From assembly GCA_045561055.1 (NCBI GenBank), contig JBJKYL010000003.1, forward strand, positions 9,797-73,796: DNA of 64,000 bases, written 5' to 3'. Position numbers and translations under genes: made by a program. The notes under the pieces are model-generated. The model saw nothing but the letters and a program-made list of their open reading frames with translations. It was not told where the DNA came from and did not search any database. How positions within the stretch are numbered: the first letter of the stretch is position 1; every line of letters begins with the position of its first letter. The stretch is from Candidatus Rariloculaceae bacterium (GTDB lineage Bacteria > Pseudomonadota > Gammaproteobacteria > Steroidobacterales > Rariloculaceae). Below are positions 1-53,689 of this stretch, piece after piece.

Positions 1-63
1 AGTAGCGAAGGGATAGCAATGTCGAACGCGCAGATTTAACGTCGCTTAGCGATGAGGTAGTAA

Positions 64-381
64 ATGACATCAACTGGAAGCAAGGATCGGATAGCTCAAA
101 TTGGTACACGAAGCCCTGTATGCCCTAGTGATATCAATATGTCTGCTTTCGTGTCCGTCGCCGTTGTGTGTGTATTAGCGTGCAACGGTGCATTCGCCCA
201 AACTTCGGCGATTGGTATTGTTAAGCGGTCGGCAGGAGTTCTCGGTGGCCTAGAGAAATTTCAGGGTATTCGTAACATCATGCTAAAGGGCTGCGGTCAG
301 TGGGCGCGGCAGCGCTGTACCGATGAACTCGCAAAAGGCAACTACTTCCCCGGCCGCCCCGTCCAGACCGAAAGATTCTGA
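64..381 (+). CDS. hypothetical small exported protein (probable true start ATG 139)
   Basis: ORF only. An internal Met is followed by a signal-peptide-like stretch, MSAFVSVAVVCVLACNGAFA-Q. No family recognised. Confidence 0.3.
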   Translation: MTSTGSKDRIAQIGTRSPVCPSDINMSAFVSVAVVCVLACNGAFAQTSAIGIVKRSAGVLGGLEKFQGIRNIMLKGCGQWARQRCTDELAKGNYFPGRPVQTERF

Positions 382-387
382 AGAAAG

Positions 388-762
388 ATGTCATCACTCG
401 CTCACAACCTCAATCTGATGAATGAGTTCAACATACTTCGTATTATCTGTGGCGCTTTCTTTATTCCGCACATTTACGCTAAATTCTTTGTGCCGGAGGC
501 GCTCGGTTTTTTTGTGGCAGCTGGCTTCAAACCACCGAAGGCATGGATGTATGTCGCCTGTGTGATAGAGGTTGTTCTCACGATCGGATTGATCTTTGGT
601 GTCTTTACCGTTTATGTTGCCGCAGTCGCCGCTATCCATCTTCTTGTAGCAGCAATTGGTGTGTGGAAGGTCACTGGCGGAAAATGGCTATGGAACATTG
701 GTGGCTGCGAATACTGCCTCTTCTGGGCGATATGCTGTGCCGTCGTTGCGATGCATGGATAA
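388..762 (+). CDS. DoxX-like small integral membrane protein
   Basis: 124 aa with about four hydrophobic helices. The pattern R..CGAFF.PH...K ... E..L..GL..G..T ... H matches what I recall for the DoxX family. Confidence 0.5.
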   Translation: MSSLAHNLNLMNEFNILRIICGAFFIPHIYAKFFVPEALGFFVAAGFKPPKAWMYVACVIEVVLTIGLIFGVFTVYVAAVAAIHLLVAAIGVWKVTGGKWLWNIGGCEYCLFWAICCAVVAMHG

Positions 763-813
763 CGGAGTGTCACTTATGATGGTACTCTGGTAGGAAGAGT
801 TATAGGAGTAAAC

Positions 814-1803
814 GTGTTGAAGAATTTCTTGCACGGCGTGTTGAGATGCGCGAGATACGTGGCGTTGGCTATAGTCATCGCTTCCGTTTCGGCTCATGGT
901 CAAACGGTAGATGAGATCCATGCTCAGCTGCGTTTGCTAGGATCTCAAGATGGTAACCCTAGGGTAGCGTCTCAGGATCTTTACCTCGGTCTGCATGAGC
1001 AGATGGATCGCAGCGATGTGGAGGTTACGCGCGATATTCGTTACGGCCCCCATCCTGACCACGTTCTAGATATTTATACTCCGGTTGAGCGTGGCGATGA
1101 GCTTCTTCCTATTGTCGTTTTCGTACATGGTGGCTTGCTGGGTAACGGTGACAAGCTCTCGGGTGGAGCTGAGGAATATGTCTCCGGGAACGTTGCGACA
1201 TTTTTCGCACGGCACGGTTTTATCGGCATAACCGCGAACTATCGTCTCGTGCCCGATATTGTTTGGCCGCAGGGTGCAGAGGACATGCGCGAGATTCTCG
1301 GTTGGTTACGAACAGAAAACGGAGCGGCATTTGGTGGTGATCGCGATGCGATGTTCATGATCGGTCAGTCCGGCGGTGCCCGCCACCTCGCGTCATATTT
1401 GTTTCATAGAACGTCGCAAATGGTTCGCTCGACAGAGCTGCGTGGTGCGGTTTTATTATCGCCGAGACTGGATGTTGGCGATTCGGATACCTTTAAGCAC
1501 TATTACGGAGAGGATCTTGGAGTGCAGGCTCAGAACTCTCCGGTCGGTTTGGTTGAGAGCTTTGACATCAACCGGCCGACTGTACCGATACTCCTGGTGA
1601 CCACTGAGTTTGATGGACCAAATATTCAAGTTCCAGTTGCGGCGTTCTTTGCCGCGACCTGTGAGAAATATCAGGAGTGCCCAAGACTTGTGCAACTGAA
1701 GAATCATAACCGGTTCTCTACAGTATTGAGCTTCGATACGGGAGATGAGACGGTGAGTGGGGTGGTTTTGGATTTTTTCCGCGGAATTTATGATTCCTTA
1801 TAA
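814..1803 (+). CDS. secreted alpha/beta-hydrolase (esterase/lipase, HGG type)
   Basis: GTG start and a signal peptide (ALAIVIASVSAHG). Oxyanion motif VFVHGGLLGNGDK and nucleophile elbow GQSGG. Confidence 0.75.
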   Translation: MLKNFLHGVLRCARYVALAIVIASVSAHGQTVDEIHAQLRLLGSQDGNPRVASQDLYLGLHEQMDRSDVEVTRDIRYGPHPDHVLDIYTPVERGDELLPIVVFVHGGLLGNGDKLSGGAEEYVSGNVATFFARHGFIGITANYRLVPDIVWPQGAEDMREILGWLRTENGAAFGGDRDAMFMIGQSGGARHLASYLFHRTSQMVRSTELRGAVLLSPRLDVGDSDTFKHYYGEDLGVQAQNSPVGLVESFDINRPTVPILLVTTEFDGPNIQVPVAAFFAATCEKYQECPRLVQLKNHNRFSTVLSFDTGDETVSGVVLDFFRGIYDSL

Positions 1804-1823
1804 AAATAGGAAGGAAAAATACG

Positions 1824-2255
1824 ATGAATAAATTTAAGCAACCGCTTATCGGAGGACGTCACATTCTGGCGATTCTTGTCGGCGTGACGTGCGCGGTATC
1901 CGCCGTCGCTCACCATGGTTTCGCCTCCTATTTGGAAGAGGAATACACCCTGACCGGTACGGTAAAAGATATGTATTTTGGTTTCCCTCATCCACAGCTC
2001 ACGATTGAATCTGAAGGACAGACTTGGAATCTGTGGTTGGCGGCATTCGGCCGTGTGAGATTTGTCTGTTTTCACGAAGAACTAGCGGTCGGCGATGAAA
2101 TCGTAGCCGTAGGACATCGTGTGCCAGATCCCTCGCGTTTTGAAATGAAGGCCGAGAATGTTCTTGTGGACAACAAGTTCTATGATTTCTACCCTCCCAA
2201 TAATCCGCTTGGCGGGAACGCGAACCCGATCAGATCCGAGCCTTGCCCAACATGA
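1824..2255 (+). CDS. exported His-His N-terminus protein, short paralog (DUF6152-like domain only)
   Basis: AGGAAGGA Shine-Dalgarno upstream. Signal peptide ends SAVA, followed directly by HHGFASY. Conserved FPHP and GDEIVAVGH blocks are shared with the next two genes. Confidence 0.8.
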   Translation: MNKFKQPLIGGRHILAILVGVTCAVSAVAHHGFASYLEEEYTLTGTVKDMYFGFPHPQLTIESEGQTWNLWLAAFGRVRFVCFHEELAVGDEIVAVGHRVPDPSRFEMKAENVLVDNKFYDFYPPNNPLGGNANPIRSEPCPT

Positions 2256-2302
2256 GTCTGGATGCGGGTTGCAAAGAAAAATTGCCGAGCTCGTCAACGC
2301 CT

Positions 2303-3277
2303 ATGAGATTAGTAAGTTGTTTGCTGTCCCTCGTAATATTGCCGATGGTTGTACATGCCCATCACTCCTTTGCAATTTACGATAGAAGTGTAATCCACGA
2401 AATTGAGGGTGAGCTGGTCGGTGTACGCTGGCGAAATCCACACGTGATGTTCACGGTGCGCACCGAGGACTCCGACGGGCAACTTCAAGACTGGGAGATC
2501 GAAGCGGCGGCAGTCTATGTTGTTGAGAGATCTGGCGTACAGGCGAGTATGTTCGACGGAGTTGGCTATGTGAAGGCAGCCGGGTGGCGCTCTCCAGATC
2601 GTTCGGCAATGCAGGTTACGAACATCTTGCTACCCAATGGAAACGAAATTTTGCTGTCGGGAAGCGCCAGCAACCGTTGGTCGGACGATTTTGTGGGTGG
2701 GCAACTTGATGGTGAGCGAGTGGATCGTGCCGATCGTGACCTGTTTCGCGTCTGGAGCATTGAGAATTTTGGTAGGGGCAATGGGCAACAACAAAGTGAG
2801 GTTCGATTGACCGAAAGGGCTAGGGAAATGCCATCTGTATTCGAACTCGACATCTGTCAGCCACAGGGAATGCCTGCGATCATGCAGAATCCTCTCCCTA
2901 TCGAGTTTATCGATAAGGGAGCGATTATCGAGCTCCGCCTTAACACATTCGGTGTATTACGGACTATCCATATGAGCGACGAACCGCGTACCGAAGCGAT
3001 ACCTCTCTCTGATCTGGGCTACTCGGTTGGCCGGCGCGTGGGTGATACGCTGGAAGTTCTAACGACACGGGTGGGCTGGCCTTATTTTGACGACAATGGC
3101 ACGCCACAAACCGAAAATATTGTGATAACGGAACGTTTCTCACTAGTCGATGACAAGTCTCGGTTGAATTATAGTCAGACGGTCACCGATCCCGAATCAT
3201 TTCTGGAACCGGTGATTTTTAGTGGTTATTGGGCCGATATCGGCGAAGAGCAGGTCGGGTTTACTGGATGCGACTGA
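2303..3277 (+). CDS. exported His-His N-terminus protein, long paralog 1
   Basis: The ORF track starts at 2243 (TTG). MRLVSCLLSLVILPMVVHA reads as a clean signal peptide from ATG 2303 and is followed by HHSFAIYD. It has WRNPHV and a C-terminal extension homologous to that of 3371-4390. Confidence 0.8.
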   Translation: MRLVSCLLSLVILPMVVHAHHSFAIYDRSVIHEIEGELVGVRWRNPHVMFTVRTEDSDGQLQDWEIEAAAVYVVERSGVQASMFDGVGYVKAAGWRSPDRSAMQVTNILLPNGNEILLSGSASNRWSDDFVGGQLDGERVDRADRDLFRVWSIENFGRGNGQQQSEVRLTERAREMPSVFELDICQPQGMPAIMQNPLPIEFIDKGAIIELRLNTFGVLRTIHMSDEPRTEAIPLSDLGYSVGRRVGDTLEVLTTRVGWPYFDDNGTPQTENIVITERFSLVDDKSRLNYSQTVTDPESFLEPVIFSGYWADIGEEQVGFTGCD

Positions 3278-3370
3278 ATGATGTCCGCGTTGAATTCTGA
3301 TCTTGTTCACGAATCCGAGTATCGAGGGATGGACATCGATAAAATTTAGTTCCCGCAGAGGAAGACTATC

Positions 3371-4390
3371 ATGAGATCGGCTCTTGATCGGTTTGGATTT
3401 TCGAGCGCGCTATTCTTAATCACCTTACCCGTGGTAGCGCATCATAGTCGGGCCATATTTGATAGGGAGCGTGTCGTTACGATAGAGGGTGTTGTGACAC
3501 AGTTCGAATGGGCCAATCCCCATGTCACTGTCTTTGTCGAAACGAAGACCGACTCGGGCGATACAGTAGTCTGGGCATTCGAGGGTGGTGCGACGACTTA
3601 CCAGAGAGGCAGAGGCTGGTCAAGCGACATGCTTGCTACGGGGGACCATGTCATCGCCGCGGGTCATCCTTTGAAGACTATCGGAGCAACGACTGCAGAT
3701 GTTGTTTCGATCCGAAAAGCAGGTGTCACGGTGGTCGACAACGGTGTTGCTACGTCAGCGCTCGAGGGGCCCGGGCTCGCATCGTTTGGGACCGATGGCC
3801 TATCCGGAATTTGGTATATTCCTCAGAACCCGTCTCATACACAATTTTCTACCCCTTCTTCTTATCCGTGGTCTTTGACATCCAAAGGTACTGGAGATCT
3901 CGCGGCGTATGATGACCGGACCATGAATCCACAAAATAGATGCGGGGTCCGTACGGCTCCATGGCTTATGACATGGGGCGTATACAGCATCGAGGTGAGC
4001 GATCGCTTGATTTCTATTCGCACTGAATTCGATACTGTTGAGCGAACTGTTTATATGGACGTTACTTCACATGATGGTGCTGCGATCACGACTCAGGGCC
4101 ATTCGATCGGTCGGTGGGAAGACGAGGTTCTGGTTGTTGACACGACGCATTTCGCAGACCACCGTATCGGCAATGCTCGGGGTGTGTCGTCGGGCTCACA
4201 AAAACATCTCGTCGAACGCTTTGAATTGAACCCCGATGGAACAGGTCTAACTTATCGCTTCGAGCTCGAGGATCCGGAGTACTTGTCCGCCCTTGTCACT
4301 GGCGAGCTGCAGTCGGCGTATCGACCAGATCTTGGATTCGAGCCGATAGACTGTAACTTGGAGATTGCGCGCCGGTTTCTAGAAGATTGA
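3371..4390 (+). CDS. exported His-His N-terminus protein, long paralog 2
   Basis: GAGGAAG Shine-Dalgarno upstream. Signal peptide ends LPVVA, followed by HHSRAIFD. It has WANPHV and C-terminal blocks GHSIGRW, LVERFEL and EDPE that match the 2303-3277 protein. Confidence 0.85.
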   Translation: MRSALDRFGFSSALFLITLPVVAHHSRAIFDRERVVTIEGVVTQFEWANPHVTVFVETKTDSGDTVVWAFEGGATTYQRGRGWSSDMLATGDHVIAAGHPLKTIGATTADVVSIRKAGVTVVDNGVATSALEGPGLASFGTDGLSGIWYIPQNPSHTQFSTPSSYPWSLTSKGTGDLAAYDDRTMNPQNRCGVRTAPWLMTWGVYSIEVSDRLISIRTEFDTVERTVYMDVTSHDGAAITTQGHSIGRWEDEVLVVDTTHFADHRIGNARGVSSGSQKHLVERFELNPDGTGLTYRFELEDPEYLSALVTGELQSAYRPDLGFEPIDCNLEIARRFLED

Positions 4391-4472
4391 TTAAATGTCC
4401 GCTTTTGGTCGAAAGAAACTGTCGGTTAATGGTTAATATGTAGGCTAGTGCACATCTGAGGAACGATCGAAG

Positions 4473-4808
4473 ATGATGAGGTGTACGTTAGTGATCGCCA
4501 TGGCCGCCATCATCCTGGCGGATGCTGTTTCCGCGCAGCCACAGAGCCCAAGTTGTGGCAGATTCGAGGTTCTAGAAGACACGATGGTTGAGACGCGCCT
4601 TTTTCGGAAAGGTACCTACGTTATTCACTCAATCGGTGTTCCATGCGAAGAAGTACTAGGAGCAGACGGGCTCTTCGCAAGGTTTCTCGGTCTTGGAGAC
4701 GATGCACCGTTGCCCGAGCCGTGGAAATCTCTCACCGAAGCGGTGGGAGCGCCGAAGTTTGCTACTAGCGCCGGATACGGTTTCCGCGCTCAGCGAATAT
4801 CGGACTGA
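4473..4808 (+). CDS. hypothetical exported protein
   Basis: GAGGA Shine-Dalgarno upstream. Signal peptide MMRCTLVIAMAAIILADAVSA-Q. Two Cys in the mature part. No family recognised. Confidence 0.55.
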   Translation: MMRCTLVIAMAAIILADAVSAQPQSPSCGRFEVLEDTMVETRLFRKGTYVIHSIGVPCEEVLGADGLFARFLGLGDDAPLPEPWKSLTEAVGAPKFATSAGYGFRAQRISD

Positions 4809-4849
4809 ACTATGACCGCTTATGGCTAAAAGTAGCGGTTAGTCAACAA

Positions 4850-5812
4850 TTAAAAAGACAACGGACGAGGTTTCACTGCAATATATCGGCTGCTGTATGC
4901 CACGATGTCAGTAACGATTATTTCTATCCCCTCTTCTGTCATTCCATCTCTCCCGTGCAAATACCCATGACCATATCCTGGGTAGTTTATTTCTTTTATC
5001 AGCTTGTTATGTTTTGTAAGTGCAGGAATTAGTAGCTCAGCATTCACTCGGTTGACCGGATGCACATCACTATGGATTAACATGACGGGAGGCGATATAC
5101 GCTGCACTTTGTTTTCAAGAATGATTTGTTTTTCACTGTTGTGATATTTTTCAAAATTAATGCCCACGTCCATGTTAGGCGTGTAGGGATCTCGCGGGAC
5201 GTTAGGGTCAGGATCAGGGAATAGTTCAGCTAGCAATGTTGTAGCAGGCTCACTAACGATGACCGCTGTCGGCGCTTCCGGTCGACCGGCAAGCTCTAAT
5301 GTCAATCGCCCGCCTGAACTATGTCCCAGCATAATAATACTATTTGGATCAATACGAGGTGATATGCGTAATTCTTCAAGGATGGCCGCTAAATCCTCAA
5401 CCGGCCCTAGGTTATCTGCTTCAAATTGCTCATGGCTTCTGAAAGATGCTAAGACTACCCCGAATCCAGCGGCTAGTAACCGGGTAATCGATGGATCATT
5501 GAGCGACTGGTCAATCCGGTTTTCAAGGGGTTGGTACCTATGGCCCCCATGCACGAAAACAATGACCGGGAAAAGACCTTCACCTACAGGAATACGTTGA
5601 ACAATTTCCACTGTATGTTGATCATGGACTGTAATGACAGAAGTCGTAACCGGCGCGATTTCTTCCGGCACATCTATGCCCGAAATCATGGGGCCTCTTG
5701 ACCTATTGCGAATAGGCTCGTCAATTCCGGTAGTTTGGGCAAAAGTAGGTGCTGATGAAATTGAAAGGATGGCTAAACTGCAGGCAATGCCAGTTAACTG
5801 AAACTTCTTCAT
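4850..5812 (-). CDS. secreted alpha/beta-hydrolase (dienelactone hydrolase / S9-like serine hydrolase)
   Basis: Signal peptide (ILSISSAPTFAQ). Motifs VIVFVHGG, nucleophile elbow GHSSGG, and a C-terminal GYGHGY histidine motif. Confidence 0.7.
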   Translation of the reverse strand: MKKFQLTGIACSLAILSISSAPTFAQTTGIDEPIRNRSRGPMISGIDVPEEIAPVTTSVITVHDQHTVEIVQRIPVGEGLFPVIVFVHGGHRYQPLENRIDQSLNDPSITRLLAAGFGVVLASFRSHEQFEADNLGPVEDLAAILEELRISPRIDPNSIIMLGHSSGGRLTLELAGRPEAPTAVIVSEPATTLLAELFPDPDPNVPRDPYTPNMDVGINFEKYHNSEKQIILENKVQRISPPVMLIHSDVHPVNRVNAELLIPALTKHNKLIKEINYPGYGHGYLHGRDGMTEEGIEIIVTDIVAYSSRYIAVKPRPLSF

Positions 5813-5958
5813 AATTTTGGCACCTAATAAATTTCTTCTCTGTTAATCGTTACCCACCTCAATTTCAAGCGTGACAACTAATCCAGGAGTTCGATGCTCG
5901 TAGTAAGAACGCTGAAGAAGGTTATCAAATTTTTTAATCAGTTATATAAGTTGAGTAA

Positions 5959-6049
5959 TGGCGGAGGGAGTGGGATTCGAACCCACGGACGGGACGAGCC
6001 CGTCACTTGATTTCGAATCAAGCCCGTTCGACCACTCCGGCATCCCTCC
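5959..6049 (-). tRNA. tRNA-Ser (anticodon CGA)
   Basis: The reverse complement reads GGAGGGA...TCCCTCC-G-CCA. It has anticodon stem-loop CTTGA-TTCGAAA-TCAAG, a long variable arm and a GGTTCGAATCC T-loop. Confidence 0.9.
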
Positions 6050-6148
6050 GCCGGCGAATCTAGCAGGTCACTAGGTGGTCGGCAACAAAGAGACGATTTC
6101 TTTCAGTGGGATCGGGGCTATAACTATCGCTGCCCGTTTCCGGCCCAT

Positions 6149-6535
6149 CTATCGGCTCAAAGTCGTCGCACCTTGATATCCGAGCCAGACTGCGATGAGA
6201 CATAGGAAAACGGATAAGAAGATATTAGCGCTAGCGAATAACCAGTCGCCATTCCTAACCAGATTCAGCGTCTGTAAGCTAAACGAAGAAAATGTCGTAT
6301 AGCCGCCGCAAACGCCGATCATTAGCAGTGCCCGTGCGTCTGGGGAAATAAGAGCGCGGCCATCAGGAGAGACGAGTCCGGCAAGGATCCCAATAGCCAG
6401 CGAACCCAAAACGTTCACGACGATCGTGCCCCATGGTAGAGCTTCACCGAAGTGCCGAGAAATAATGTTAGCGCACCAATAGCGTCCAATACCTCCAAGC
6501 GCGCTACCAAGCCCAATCCATATATAGGTCAACAC
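6149..6535 (-). CDS. crcB: fluoride ion channel CrcB/Fluc
   Basis: 128 aa with four TM helices. Motifs GGIGRYW and GGYTTFSSF. GTG start. Confidence 0.9.
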   Translation of the reverse strand: MLTYIWIGLGSALGGIGRYWCANIISRHFGEALPWGTIVVNVLGSLAIGILAGLVSPDGRALISPDARALLMIGVCGGYTTFSSFSLQTLNLVRNGDWLFASANIFLSVFLCLIAVWLGYQGATTLSR

Positions 6536-8217: not shown

Positions 8218-8571
8218 ATGAGCACCCAGCCGATTTATAAAGTGATTTTCATGAACCAGGGAAAGGTTTTTGAGATTTACGCGCGGAGCGTAGGACATGG
8301 CTCGCTTTTCGGATTCGTAGAGGTTGAGGAGTTGATCTTCGGGGCGCGTTCGACGGTCGTCGTTGACCCGTCCGAGGAACGCATTCAGAGTGAATTCTCT
8401 GGTGTCAGTCGAACCTATCTTCCATTGCACTCCATCGTACGGATTGATGAAGTTGAAAAACAGGGTGTGAGTAAGGTGACGTCCGCAGAGGGCAGTAACG
8501 TGGCGCAATTTCCTATGCAGATGTACCCGCCATCTGGTGAAGGTGGTAAAGGCGGTTCAGGGGACAAGTGA
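8218..8571 (+). CDS. DUF1820-like conserved hypothetical protein
   Basis: The N-terminus IYKVIFMNQGKVFEIYAR...VEVEELIFG...VDPSEE...PLHSIVRIDEV matches my memory of DUF1820 proteins. Confidence 0.55.
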   Translation: MSTQPIYKVIFMNQGKVFEIYARSVGHGSLFGFVEVEELIFGARSTVVVDPSEERIQSEFSGVSRTYLPLHSIVRIDEVEKQGVSKVTSAEGSNVAQFPMQMYPPSGEGGKGGSGDK

Positions 8572-47526: not shown

Positions 47527-47603
47527 CGGGGCATGGCGCAGTCTGGTAGCGCATCTGCTTTGGGAGCAGAGGGTCGGCGGTTCGAATCCGTCTGCCCCGA
47601 CCA
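47527..47603 (+). tRNA. tRNA-Pro (anticodon TGG)
   Basis: CGGGGCA...TGCCCCG-A-CCA. Anticodon loop TTTGGGA and T-loop GGTTCGAATCC. Confidence 0.9.
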
Positions 47604-47650
47604 TCACAGCCTAGGTAATCTCGGTTGCAGTTGGTAGGATTCTTAACTAA

Positions 47651-47727
47651 GCGCCTGTAGCTCAACCGGATAGAGCACCGGCCTTCTAAGCCGGGGGTTG
47701 CAGGTTCGAGTCCTGCCGGGCGCGCCA
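47651..47727 (+). tRNA. tRNA-Arg (anticodon TCT)
   Basis: GCGCCTG...CGGGCGC-G-CCA. Anticodon stem-loop CCGGC-CTTCTAA-GCCGG. Confidence 0.9.
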
Positions 47728-47757
47728 GTAAAGAATTGAGTATTTTGGAAAATTTGT

Positions 47758-47834
47758 GGTGGGCGTAGCTCAGCTGGTAGAGCCCCGGGTTGTGATCCCG
47801 GTCGTCGTGGGTTCGAGTCCCATCGTCCACCCCA
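47758..47834 (+). tRNA. tRNA-His (anticodon GTG)
   Basis: An extra 5' G(-1) pairs with the discriminator C. Anticodon stem-loop CCGGG-TTGTGAT-CCCGG, with CCA encoded. Confidence 0.9.
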
Positions 47835-47860
47835 TTTCTTTTTACTCATCGTGGTCTAAT

Positions 47861-47937
47861 GGGCCGTTAGCTCAATCAGGCAGAGCAGCAGACTCTTAAT
47901 CTGTTGGTTGTAGGTTCGATTCCTACACGGCCCACCA
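47861..47937 (+). tRNA. tRNA-Lys (anticodon CTT)
   Basis: GGGCCGT...ACGGCCC-A-CCA. Anticodon loop CTCTTAA. Confidence 0.88.

Positions 47938-53604: not shown

Positions 53605-53689
<85 letters not shown>

Follow-up and report, generated by a model that had tools for sequence, protein, structure and literature searches.

N-terminal-histidine copper enzymes such as the lytic polysaccharide monooxygenases (LPMOs) and the particulate methane monooxygenase (pMMO) are of major biotechnological and biogeochemical importance. The histidine brace that defines copper sites of this kind is known from LPMO families AA9-AA17, CopC, PmoF1, YcnI/DUF1775, the CuB site of PmoB, and X325/Bim1 (PMC10952591). 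In this work we analyzed a stretch of 64,000 nucleotides from Candidatus Rariloculaceae bacterium (GenBank assembly GCA_045561055.1, contig JBJKYL010000003.1, positions 9,797 to 73,796 of the forward strand; hereafter the window), in which three consecutive genes at 1824-4390, here called A, B, and C, encode exported proteins whose mature N-terminus is predicted to be His-His. The three are paralogs within DUF6152 (PF19649), a large uncharacterised Sec-exported family that is presumably periplasmic, and the two leading histidines, together with a third invariant one, may form a mononuclear metal site on a fold other than that of the brace proteins.

The three open reading frames (ORFs) were verified on the forward strand at the coordinates given by a first-pass annotation of the window, which had described them as same-strand paralogs. 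Gene A (1824..2255) encodes 143 amino acids (aa) and consists of the N-terminal module only, which is modelled below as an oligonucleotide/oligosaccharide-binding (OB) fold; gene B (2252..3277) and gene C (3371..4390, 339 aa) carry this module fused to a second, beta-barrel module. B and C align over their full length at 26% identity (E 2e-16), and A matches both at 28-29% identity in the N-domain only (first ~100 residues). All three score above the PF19649 gathering threshold of 27 bits (A marginally at 28.2, B at 44.8, and C at 79.3), which bears out the DUF6152 assignment made earlier, and homologs carry the DUF6152 annotation from NCBI and JGI. NCBIfam has no family for A, B, or C, nor for the 111-aa protein encoded next to C, and a search of the 64-kb window found no further copy. 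Gene B had been listed as an ORF of 344 aa opening with TTG at 2243, which is an unlikely start; translation probably begins at ATG 2252 (341 aa) or ATG 2303 (324 aa), and the mature protein is identical whichever of the three is used. The stop codon of A (TGA, 2253-2255) overlaps the in-frame ATG of B (2252-2254) as ATGA, which suggests that translation of A and B may be coupled, and in relatives of 95% identity the gene is called from this start, at 341 aa.

All three proteins begin with a positively charged n-region, followed by 13-15 hydrophobic residues and a c-region of the small-x-small type (SAVA, VHA, and VVA), after which His-His comes at once. The predicted signal peptide spans residues 1-29 in A (n-region MNKFKQPLIGGR, h-region HILAILVGVTCAV, c-region SAVA) and residues 1-23 in C. 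The junctions read by the first-pass annotation, CAVSAVA/HHGFASY in A, PMVVHA/HHSFAIYD in B, and TLPVVA/HHSRAIFD in C (the slash marks the predicted cleavage), were all found, as were the Pro-His strings FGFPHPQL, WRNPHVMF, and WANPHVTV in the same order, 25-26 residues after His-His. Also present were the blocks GDEIVAVGH, GDHVIAAGH, and GYVKAAGW and those of the C-terminal extension of B and C (GYSVGRR/GHSIGRW, ITERFSL/LVERFEL, and DPE). The mature His-His codons occupy 1911-1916 in A, 2360-2365 in B, and 3440-3445 in C (His24-His25), all on the forward strand; the Pro-His codons of A lie at 1986-1991, and the NPH codons at 2435-2443 in B and 3515-3523 in C (N49-P50-H51).

To place these features in the family, homologs were collected by word-indexed searches (778 for C, 442 for B, and 19 for A), and an exhaustive phmmer search (E<=1e-3) put the family at 8,495 clusters at 50% identity. 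In the usable full-length homologs from all three subfamilies (about 380), HH comes straight after an A, G, S, or T at -1 in 117/117, 122/122, 118/118, and 18/18 sequences, with A, V, S, G, L, or T at -3 and a hydrophobic core before it; sequences departing from this pattern are all N-terminally truncated or have a miscalled start. As judged from these alignments the pattern is far beyond chance. Within the A subfamily A27 (-3) and A29 (-1) are invariant and HHGF is found in 18/18 full-length homologs; an invariant Ala at both positions favors cleavage as AxA/HH over the alternative SA/xAHH. By the -3/-1 rule and family conservation we predict that all three proteins are cleaved directly before His-His. 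A separate alignment of 133 sequences, of the B and C types and reaching down to 20% identity, has only seven invariant columns (His1, Pro50, His51, Pro197, Arg225, Gly243, and Glu282), and those of the N-domain are only His1, Pro50, and His51. Conserved in at least 90% of the same sequences are His2, Ser3, Gly40, Asn49, Trp148, Cys191, Ser245, Gly247, Thr258, Asp301, and Cys328 (residues 1-3 are counted from the mature N-terminus, the others along C). The spacing of zero between the AxA site and HH and the NPH histidine are thus family-wide features, as the first-pass annotation had wished to see checked. The strongest argument that the free N-terminus matters is this constant spacing from cleavage to motif across highly divergent sequences. 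Contacts made by the N-terminal segment were also sought by mean-field direct coupling analysis of 440 mature sequences (Meff 248); the result was discarded, since indel-linked columns between subfamilies dominated its top couplings and the invariant histidines gave no signal.

An invariant His1-His2 at a fixed, ordered N-terminus and an invariant loop histidine are most economically read as an intrinsic metal site that uses the alpha-amine. Signal-peptidase cleavage would leave His-His as residues 1-2 of the OB module, and from the three imidazoles (His1, His2, and the NPH His) and the free alpha-amine, perhaps with a conserved Asp at +8, we infer a mononuclear metal site. This model is put forward tentatively, as one that comes close to being probable. 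Cu(II) would be the likeliest metal, bound either in a histidine brace, by His1 (through its NH2 and N-delta) and the distal His, or in an NH2-X-His chelate closed by the distal His, and copper has the best precedent in view of the histidine-brace definition and families (PMC10952591). That the metal is copper specifically is possible, and we regard it with some doubt. On sequence alone the second arrangement, which NikM uses for Ni(II), would fit equally well. One alternative accordingly keeps the metal site and drops the copper brace: a square-planar N4 site would bind Ni(II), Co(II), or Zn(II) through the alpha-amine, the amide N and imidazole of His2, and the NPH His (compare Met1-His2...His67 of NikM/CbiM), or the N-terminus would scavenge zinc in the manner of ZinT, the function being metal capture or trafficking. 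The same invariant H-H...H set fits this alternative; the ligand set of NikM, reportedly NH2-X-His plus a distal His, matches exactly, and in ZinT a His-rich mature N-terminus accompanies a calycin-like barrel. Sequence comparison, however, showed no similarity to ZinT, NikM, or CusF, and the models give an ordered N-terminus, whereas the tail of ZinT is flexible. Taken with the genomic context described below, we think a nickel, cobalt, or zinc site of this kind unlikely.

The fold was predicted with AlphaFold2. C with its signal peptide (48 homologs) gave a predicted local distance difference test score (pLDDT) of 84.9 and a predicted template modelling score (pTM) of 0.80; for mature C (133 homologs) the values were 93.7 and 0.89, with all five models above 92.8. 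Residues 24 to ~125 of C are modelled as a closed barrel of five strands, the third and fourth of which are joined by a helix (b1 36-47, b2 52-59, b3 65-73, helix 75-80, b4 93-101, and b5 108-116). Foldseek matched this domain to SSB, PriB, RPA, and the anticodon-binding N-domain of LysRS with a probability of 1.0 and template modelling (TM) scores of ~0.5-0.6, at E values of only ~1e-2, and on the model the N-domain is an OB fold. NPH falls in the loop that joins beta1 to beta2. Over its first ten residues the model of mature C has a mean pLDDT of 82, indicating that the N-terminus is probably ordered and not a floppy His tail. At F30 and N49 both models of C show isolated beta-bridges of a single residue each. 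Most simply, these two residues would pair with each other and so set the HH segment beside the NPH loop. None of LPMO, CopC, YcnI, PmoB, or X325 was among the top 50 fold matches in the PDB, and A, B, and C had no Pfam match to known histidine-brace families at E<=1. Membership in the known brace families fails on both fold and homology, so DUF6152 would at most work like a brace. Sequence searches of the PDB (phmmer with C, and a profile of the 133 sequences) found no relative; a match to type II dehydroquinase (E 0.3) was rejected as chance, the two having the string 'NPH' in common.

The second module of C, residues ~140-339 (3788-4387), begins in the model with a strand A that carries a lipocalin-type GxW motif (SGIW, 145-148), followed by a helical lid and about ten further antiparallel strands; the corresponding module of B lies at ~2723-3274. 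Foldseek matched it to CRABP2 and FABP4/5 (probability 0.99-1.0, TM 0.55-0.62), and neither module had a match at E<1e-3. On the model this module is an FABP/CRABP-like barrel of the calycin/iLBP (intracellular lipid-binding protein) type, and no Pfam family covers it. W148 of the SGIW motif is conserved in at least 85% of sequences. Mature B and C have exactly two Cys each, as had been claimed (in B they lie in DICQ and TGCD), while the first one is placed about 50 residues into the extension and not at its start. In C these are C191 and C328, each conserved in at least 85% of 178 sequences, and the barrel would be stapled by a disulfide between them. The polar landmarks comprise invariant R225, G243, and E282 and near-invariant S245, G247, and D301, with G243-x-S245-x-G247 forming the motif GHSIG (243-247). 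The barrel probably holds a small ligand or substrate. A second three-His site in the barrel of C (H234, H244, and H279), which is invariant in close C-type homologs, was rejected: it is not conserved in diverse C-type or in B-type proteins. One further fold match of the mature C model (ma63ee35e3913), at residues 140-339, was the dinoflagellate luciferase domain 1vpr (E 6.6e-3, probability 0.54), a weak and perhaps meaningless hit. The luciferase domain is an FABP-like barrel with oxygenase activity that is regulated by N-terminal histidines.

How the two modules are combined was examined in 84 loci (80 of them with C-type relatives), the ORFs of which were scanned by iterative HMM searches. 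The loci come from Rariloculaceae, Woeseiaceae, Steroidobacteraceae, Hyphomonadaceae, Micropepsaceae, Rhodospirillaceae, Terriglobia, Vicinamibacterales, and Gemmatimonadales. They contain 107 fused, 21 OB-only, and 34 barrel-only genes. Every OB-only gene (~125-165 aa) has a signal peptide, HH, and NPH, and every barrel-only gene has its own signal peptide and a PDLxGxW motif. A co-oriented barrel-only gene adjoins 16 of the 21 OB-only genes with gaps of -7 to +59 bp, apart from one overlap of 48 bp; two of these 16 pairs are possibly frameshifted fusions. Split pairs are also found on plasmids of two cultured sphingomonads, Croceibacterium atlanticum (WYH_RS16165/16160/16155), where two OB-only genes occur with a barrel-only 'hypothetical protein' and a TonB-dependent receptor, and Novosphingobium humi (PQ457_RS21825/21820). 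This pattern of fusion and fission is strong evidence that the modules act together, and it is well supported by gene arrangement that the HH-OB and barrel modules would cooperate either fused, as in B and C, or as adjacent genes, as in many other genomes. Two loci stand out. At L057 (4681-15744), from a Terriglobia metagenome-assembled genome (MAG), four OB-only plus barrel-only pairs lie in tandem within 11 kb, three of them near-identical repeats (131-132 aa + 247-251 aa), which points to recent local amplification. At L008 (1374-3233, reverse strand) a 619-aa barrel-only member adjoining an OB-only gene contains a Glyoxalase/VOC domain at residues ~195-306, the sole fusion of the family to a known enzyme fold that we encountered. 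Glyoxalase/VOC is a metal-dependent dioxygenase superfamily.

These observations also bear on a reading that needs no metal, according to which a composite active site between OB module and barrel would use the invariant histidines catalytically or structurally, for instance as acid/base partners of R225, S245 (GxSxG), E282, and D301 in the conversion of a small organic substrate bound in the barrel. The barrel has an invariant polar set of its own and a GxSxG motif, the two modules are obligately paired, and their arrangement in C is confidently modelled (pTM 0.89). The same reading can point to the barrel-only gene fused to a Glyoxalase/VOC domain, to the weak luciferase match as a sign that FABP-like barrels can be enzymes, and to neighbors that are mainly catabolic (esterases, metallo-beta-lactamase (MBL) hydrolases, dehydrogenases, GSTs, and glyoxalase-fold proteins). 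However, it leaves unexplained why His stands at exactly residue 1 in every member, A-type proteins retain HH and PH without any barrel, and the GxSxG lies on a beta-strand and not in a nucleophile elbow. We rate a metal-free site as improbable; the N-terminal metal site is the preferred model.

Gene A is the barrel-less variant, paired instead with an exported esterase. Its C-terminal tail (residues 121-143) is nearly invariant in the A subfamily (DFYPPxNPLGGNxNPxRxEPCPT) and lacks an equivalent in B, in C, and in the remaining OB-only members. C82 and C141, both within mature A, are invariant in the subfamily, and Cys141 of the tail probably pairs with Cys82 on the OB barrel. The esterase gene (814..1803, forward strand) encodes an exported alpha/beta-hydrolase with a signal peptide (Pfam BD-FAE / COesterase / Abhydrolase_3) and ends 20 bp upstream of A. 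The order esterase-then-A, with gaps of 14-25 bp, recurs at five loci (L001, L085, L086, L089, and L090), and A homologs of 62-80% identity always stand behind an exported BD-FAE/COesterase esterase.

The surroundings of the family as a whole are less uniform. At least two family genes are present in 40 of the 84 loci, and the maximum is nine in 17 kb. The 150 immediate flanking genes are spread over 118 Pfam families; Lactamase_B (MBL-fold) leads with five, and families found three times include GST, Zn-ADH, Glyoxalase, SBP_bac_11, and Hydrolase_4. HupE/UreJ accounts for 2/150. The 38 neighbors of more than 600 aa within three genes include two TonB-dependent receptors and no P-type ATPase, RND pump, or multicopper oxidase. 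A conserved operon partner for the family was rejected on these two censuses, and the flavor of the neighborhood is one of catabolic enzymes and exported hydrolases. High copy number and catabolic context favor an enzymatic or ligand-handling role of the OB plus barrel unit over that of a chaperone. For the nickel, cobalt, or zinc alternative the two HupE/UreJ Ni/Co permeases and the TonB-dependent receptor that adjoins one sphingomonad locus are points in favor; metal transporters and regulators are not enriched nearby, however, and so many paralogs per genome would be atypical of a trafficking protein.

The neighbors speak as well to the idea of an inhibitor or regulator of the TIMP type, in which the free N-terminal residue of the OB module would ligate the metal of a partner metalloenzyme. 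Cys1 of TIMP (OB fold) and the N-terminus of serralysin inhibitors (calycin barrel) insert into the partner and ligate its metal. DUF6152 has an OB fold with a strictly fixed N-terminus, MBL-fold hydrolases are the top neighbor family (though at 5/150), and A invariably accompanies a hydrolase. That hydrolase is, however, of the serine-type alpha/beta class and no metalloenzyme, no metalloprotease is conserved nearby, the three invariant histidines look self-contained, dozens of inhibitor paralogs would be hard to rationalise, and TIMP is absent from the top 50 fold matches. Such a function seems to us very remote.

Several points weigh against the N-terminal metal site itself. To our knowledge all known histidine-brace proteins are beta-sandwiches (Ig/FnIII-like or cupredoxin-like), so an OB fold would be without precedent among them, and the literature searched held no paper linking an OB fold with a histidine brace. 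We likewise know of no brace with a conserved His at position 2. Neither the 150 immediate nor the 38 large neighbors include a gene for copper, zinc, or nickel homeostasis, for a multicopper oxidase, or for a redox partner, and the copy number of up to nine is unlike that of metallochaperones. A clears the Pfam threshold barely, and the cleavage site is placed by rule and conservation. The histidine brace proposed by the first-pass annotation therefore stands in part: its sequence prerequisites are family-wide, whereas the fold, the lack of sequence kinship with known brace families, and the absence of metal-gene enrichment nearby do not speak for it. We concluded that the copper-brace idea is plausible and unproven. 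A bolder version would see in DUF6152 mononuclear copper oxidoreductases of the histidine-brace type that make up a structural class of their own, in which the His-His/His center of the OB module is presented to an FABP-like barrel holding a small hydrophobic or amphipathic substrate. Such a two-module periplasmic oxygenase/peroxygenase, with many paralogs in marine and soil heterotrophs, would work alongside exported esterases and hydrolases as LPMOs do with glycoside hydrolases. This is speculation on our part, and quite unlikely.

The first-pass annotation had further taken A, B, and C for one dedicated multi-component periplasmic system, a domain-only copy cooperating with two extended copies, and had proposed that conservation of the gene neighborhood be checked. 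The three genes lie close together on one strand, no terminator intervenes, the A stop and B start overlap, the whole DoxX-(MFS)-esterase-A-B-C-111aa block is retained in relatives of 95% identity, and OB-only genes elsewhere pair with barrel-containing genes. At greater distance, however, the trio is not a conserved unit. In two of the three loci with A homologs of 62-80% identity, B and C are missing; the A homologs that stand behind the esterase without B or C have 74-80% identity. Relatives in which C has 87% identity have the right flank in common with the window (CrcB, an FAD oxidase, DUF1820, an MBL-fold protein, and PurL); on the left side they have Peptidase_M19-C-111aa, and the esterase, A, and B are absent. 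In Ca. Rariloculaceae LRMED-395, the closest named MAG, 8 kb separate the homologs of B and C, and A lies on a different contig. Since relatives have A without B or C, C without A or B, and B and C at a distance, gene order indicates that the trio is a set of two or three paralogous units brought together. It would be a local juxtaposition of the units esterase-A-B and C-111aa and not an obligate three-part machine, a role that we now find highly unlikely. The two-module model takes the place of this idea.

The 111-aa exported protein (4473..4808, forward strand) is the downstream neighbor of C. It has two Cys and belongs to no Pfam or NCBIfam family. Its gene follows the C homolog at four loci (L087, L088, L089, and L090) in relatives of 87-95% identity, and the protein may be a dedicated partner of C. 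A second exported alpha/beta-hydrolase (4850..5812, reverse strand; Abhydrolase_6 / Peptidase_S9 / BD-FAE) is convergent with the cluster; it is found in L089 and absent from L088. The right edge of the esterase-A-B-C-111aa-hydrolase block is marked by a tRNA-Ser(CGA) gene (5959-6049, reverse strand). The syntenic locus L088 is without the esterase, A, B, and the reverse-strand hydrolase, and this edge may be an indel-prone spot. Upstream, a DoxX-family membrane protein (388-762, forward strand), kept in L089 and L090, is encoded directly before the esterase, and is itself preceded by an ORF (64-381, forward strand) whose 105 aa include a hydrophobic segment in the interior and match no family. 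A scan of 1-6200 for sigma-70 promoters and terminators gave nothing beyond shuffled expectation. Elsewhere in the window, four tRNA genes (Pro-TGG, Arg-TCT, His-GTG, and Lys-CTT) form a cluster at 47527-47937 on the forward strand, and more are found at 53605 (Leu-TAG), 60145 (Val-TAC), and 60234 (Asp-GTC).

As genes, A, B, and C are unremarkable members of a DUF that was already catalogued. No paper on DUF6152/PF19649 was found in the literature searched, and the PDB sequence and profile searches found no solved structure covering the family. What is new is the prediction of an N-terminal His site on an OB scaffold, the obligatory pairing of this site with an FABP-like barrel that has so far gone unannotated, and the barrel-less A coupled to an esterase. 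If true, a strict His1 signature on an OB fold next to a ligand-binding barrel, in a family of thousands of clusters, would carry brace chemistry over to another architecture, probably with new substrates. DUF6152 also becomes directly testable, with three exact residues and a defined two-gene split form in cultured sphingomonads. Even if the metal is not copper, the OB-plus-barrel pairing and the barrel domain would be new facts for annotation.

Among known systems, DUF6152 resembles in its predicted N-terminus the brace proteins, which are likewise exported, have His as residue 1 through signal-peptide cleavage, as predicted for DUF6152, and have a second, distal His that is invariant; PmoB, with His1 and two more His, even has the same count. 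The differences lie in the OB fold, the lack of sequence homology, the conserved His2, and the absence of a copper-operon context, and the metal site of DUF6152 is predicted only. NikM/CbiM combines a free alpha-amine, a residue-2 His that contributes its amide N and imidazole, and one distal His in a similar way; it is, however, an integral membrane protein of unrelated fold that undergoes no signal-peptide processing and has Met as residue 1. CusF resembles the N-domain in being a small periplasmic OB-fold protein and binds metal on the barrel surface, but it does so with His/Met/Met and a Trp cap and not with the N-terminus, and it is encoded in the cusCFBA operon. CusF had no Pfam match among A, B, and C and was not among the top fold matches. 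ZinT/YodA is also periplasmic, with a calycin/lipocalin-like barrel and a mature N-terminus rich in His. Its His stretch is flexible and variable, however, and its main site is on the barrel; it has no OB domain, is single-copy under Zur control, and gave no sequence match. TIMP (N-domain, OB) and the serralysin inhibitors Inh/APRin (calycin) have a functionally essential free N-terminus made by signal-peptide cleavage. Theirs ligates the zinc of a partner, whereas the three invariant His of DUF6152 suggest an intrinsic site. The C-terminal module, finally, has the same topology as FABP, CRABP, CRBP, and the lipocalins (GxW on strand A, a helical lid, and about ten strands). It differs from the iLBPs in being ~60 residues larger with an extended helical insert, in being exported and probably disulfide-stapled, and in its 11-15% identity to them, and it stands for a barrel that has no Pfam family of its own.

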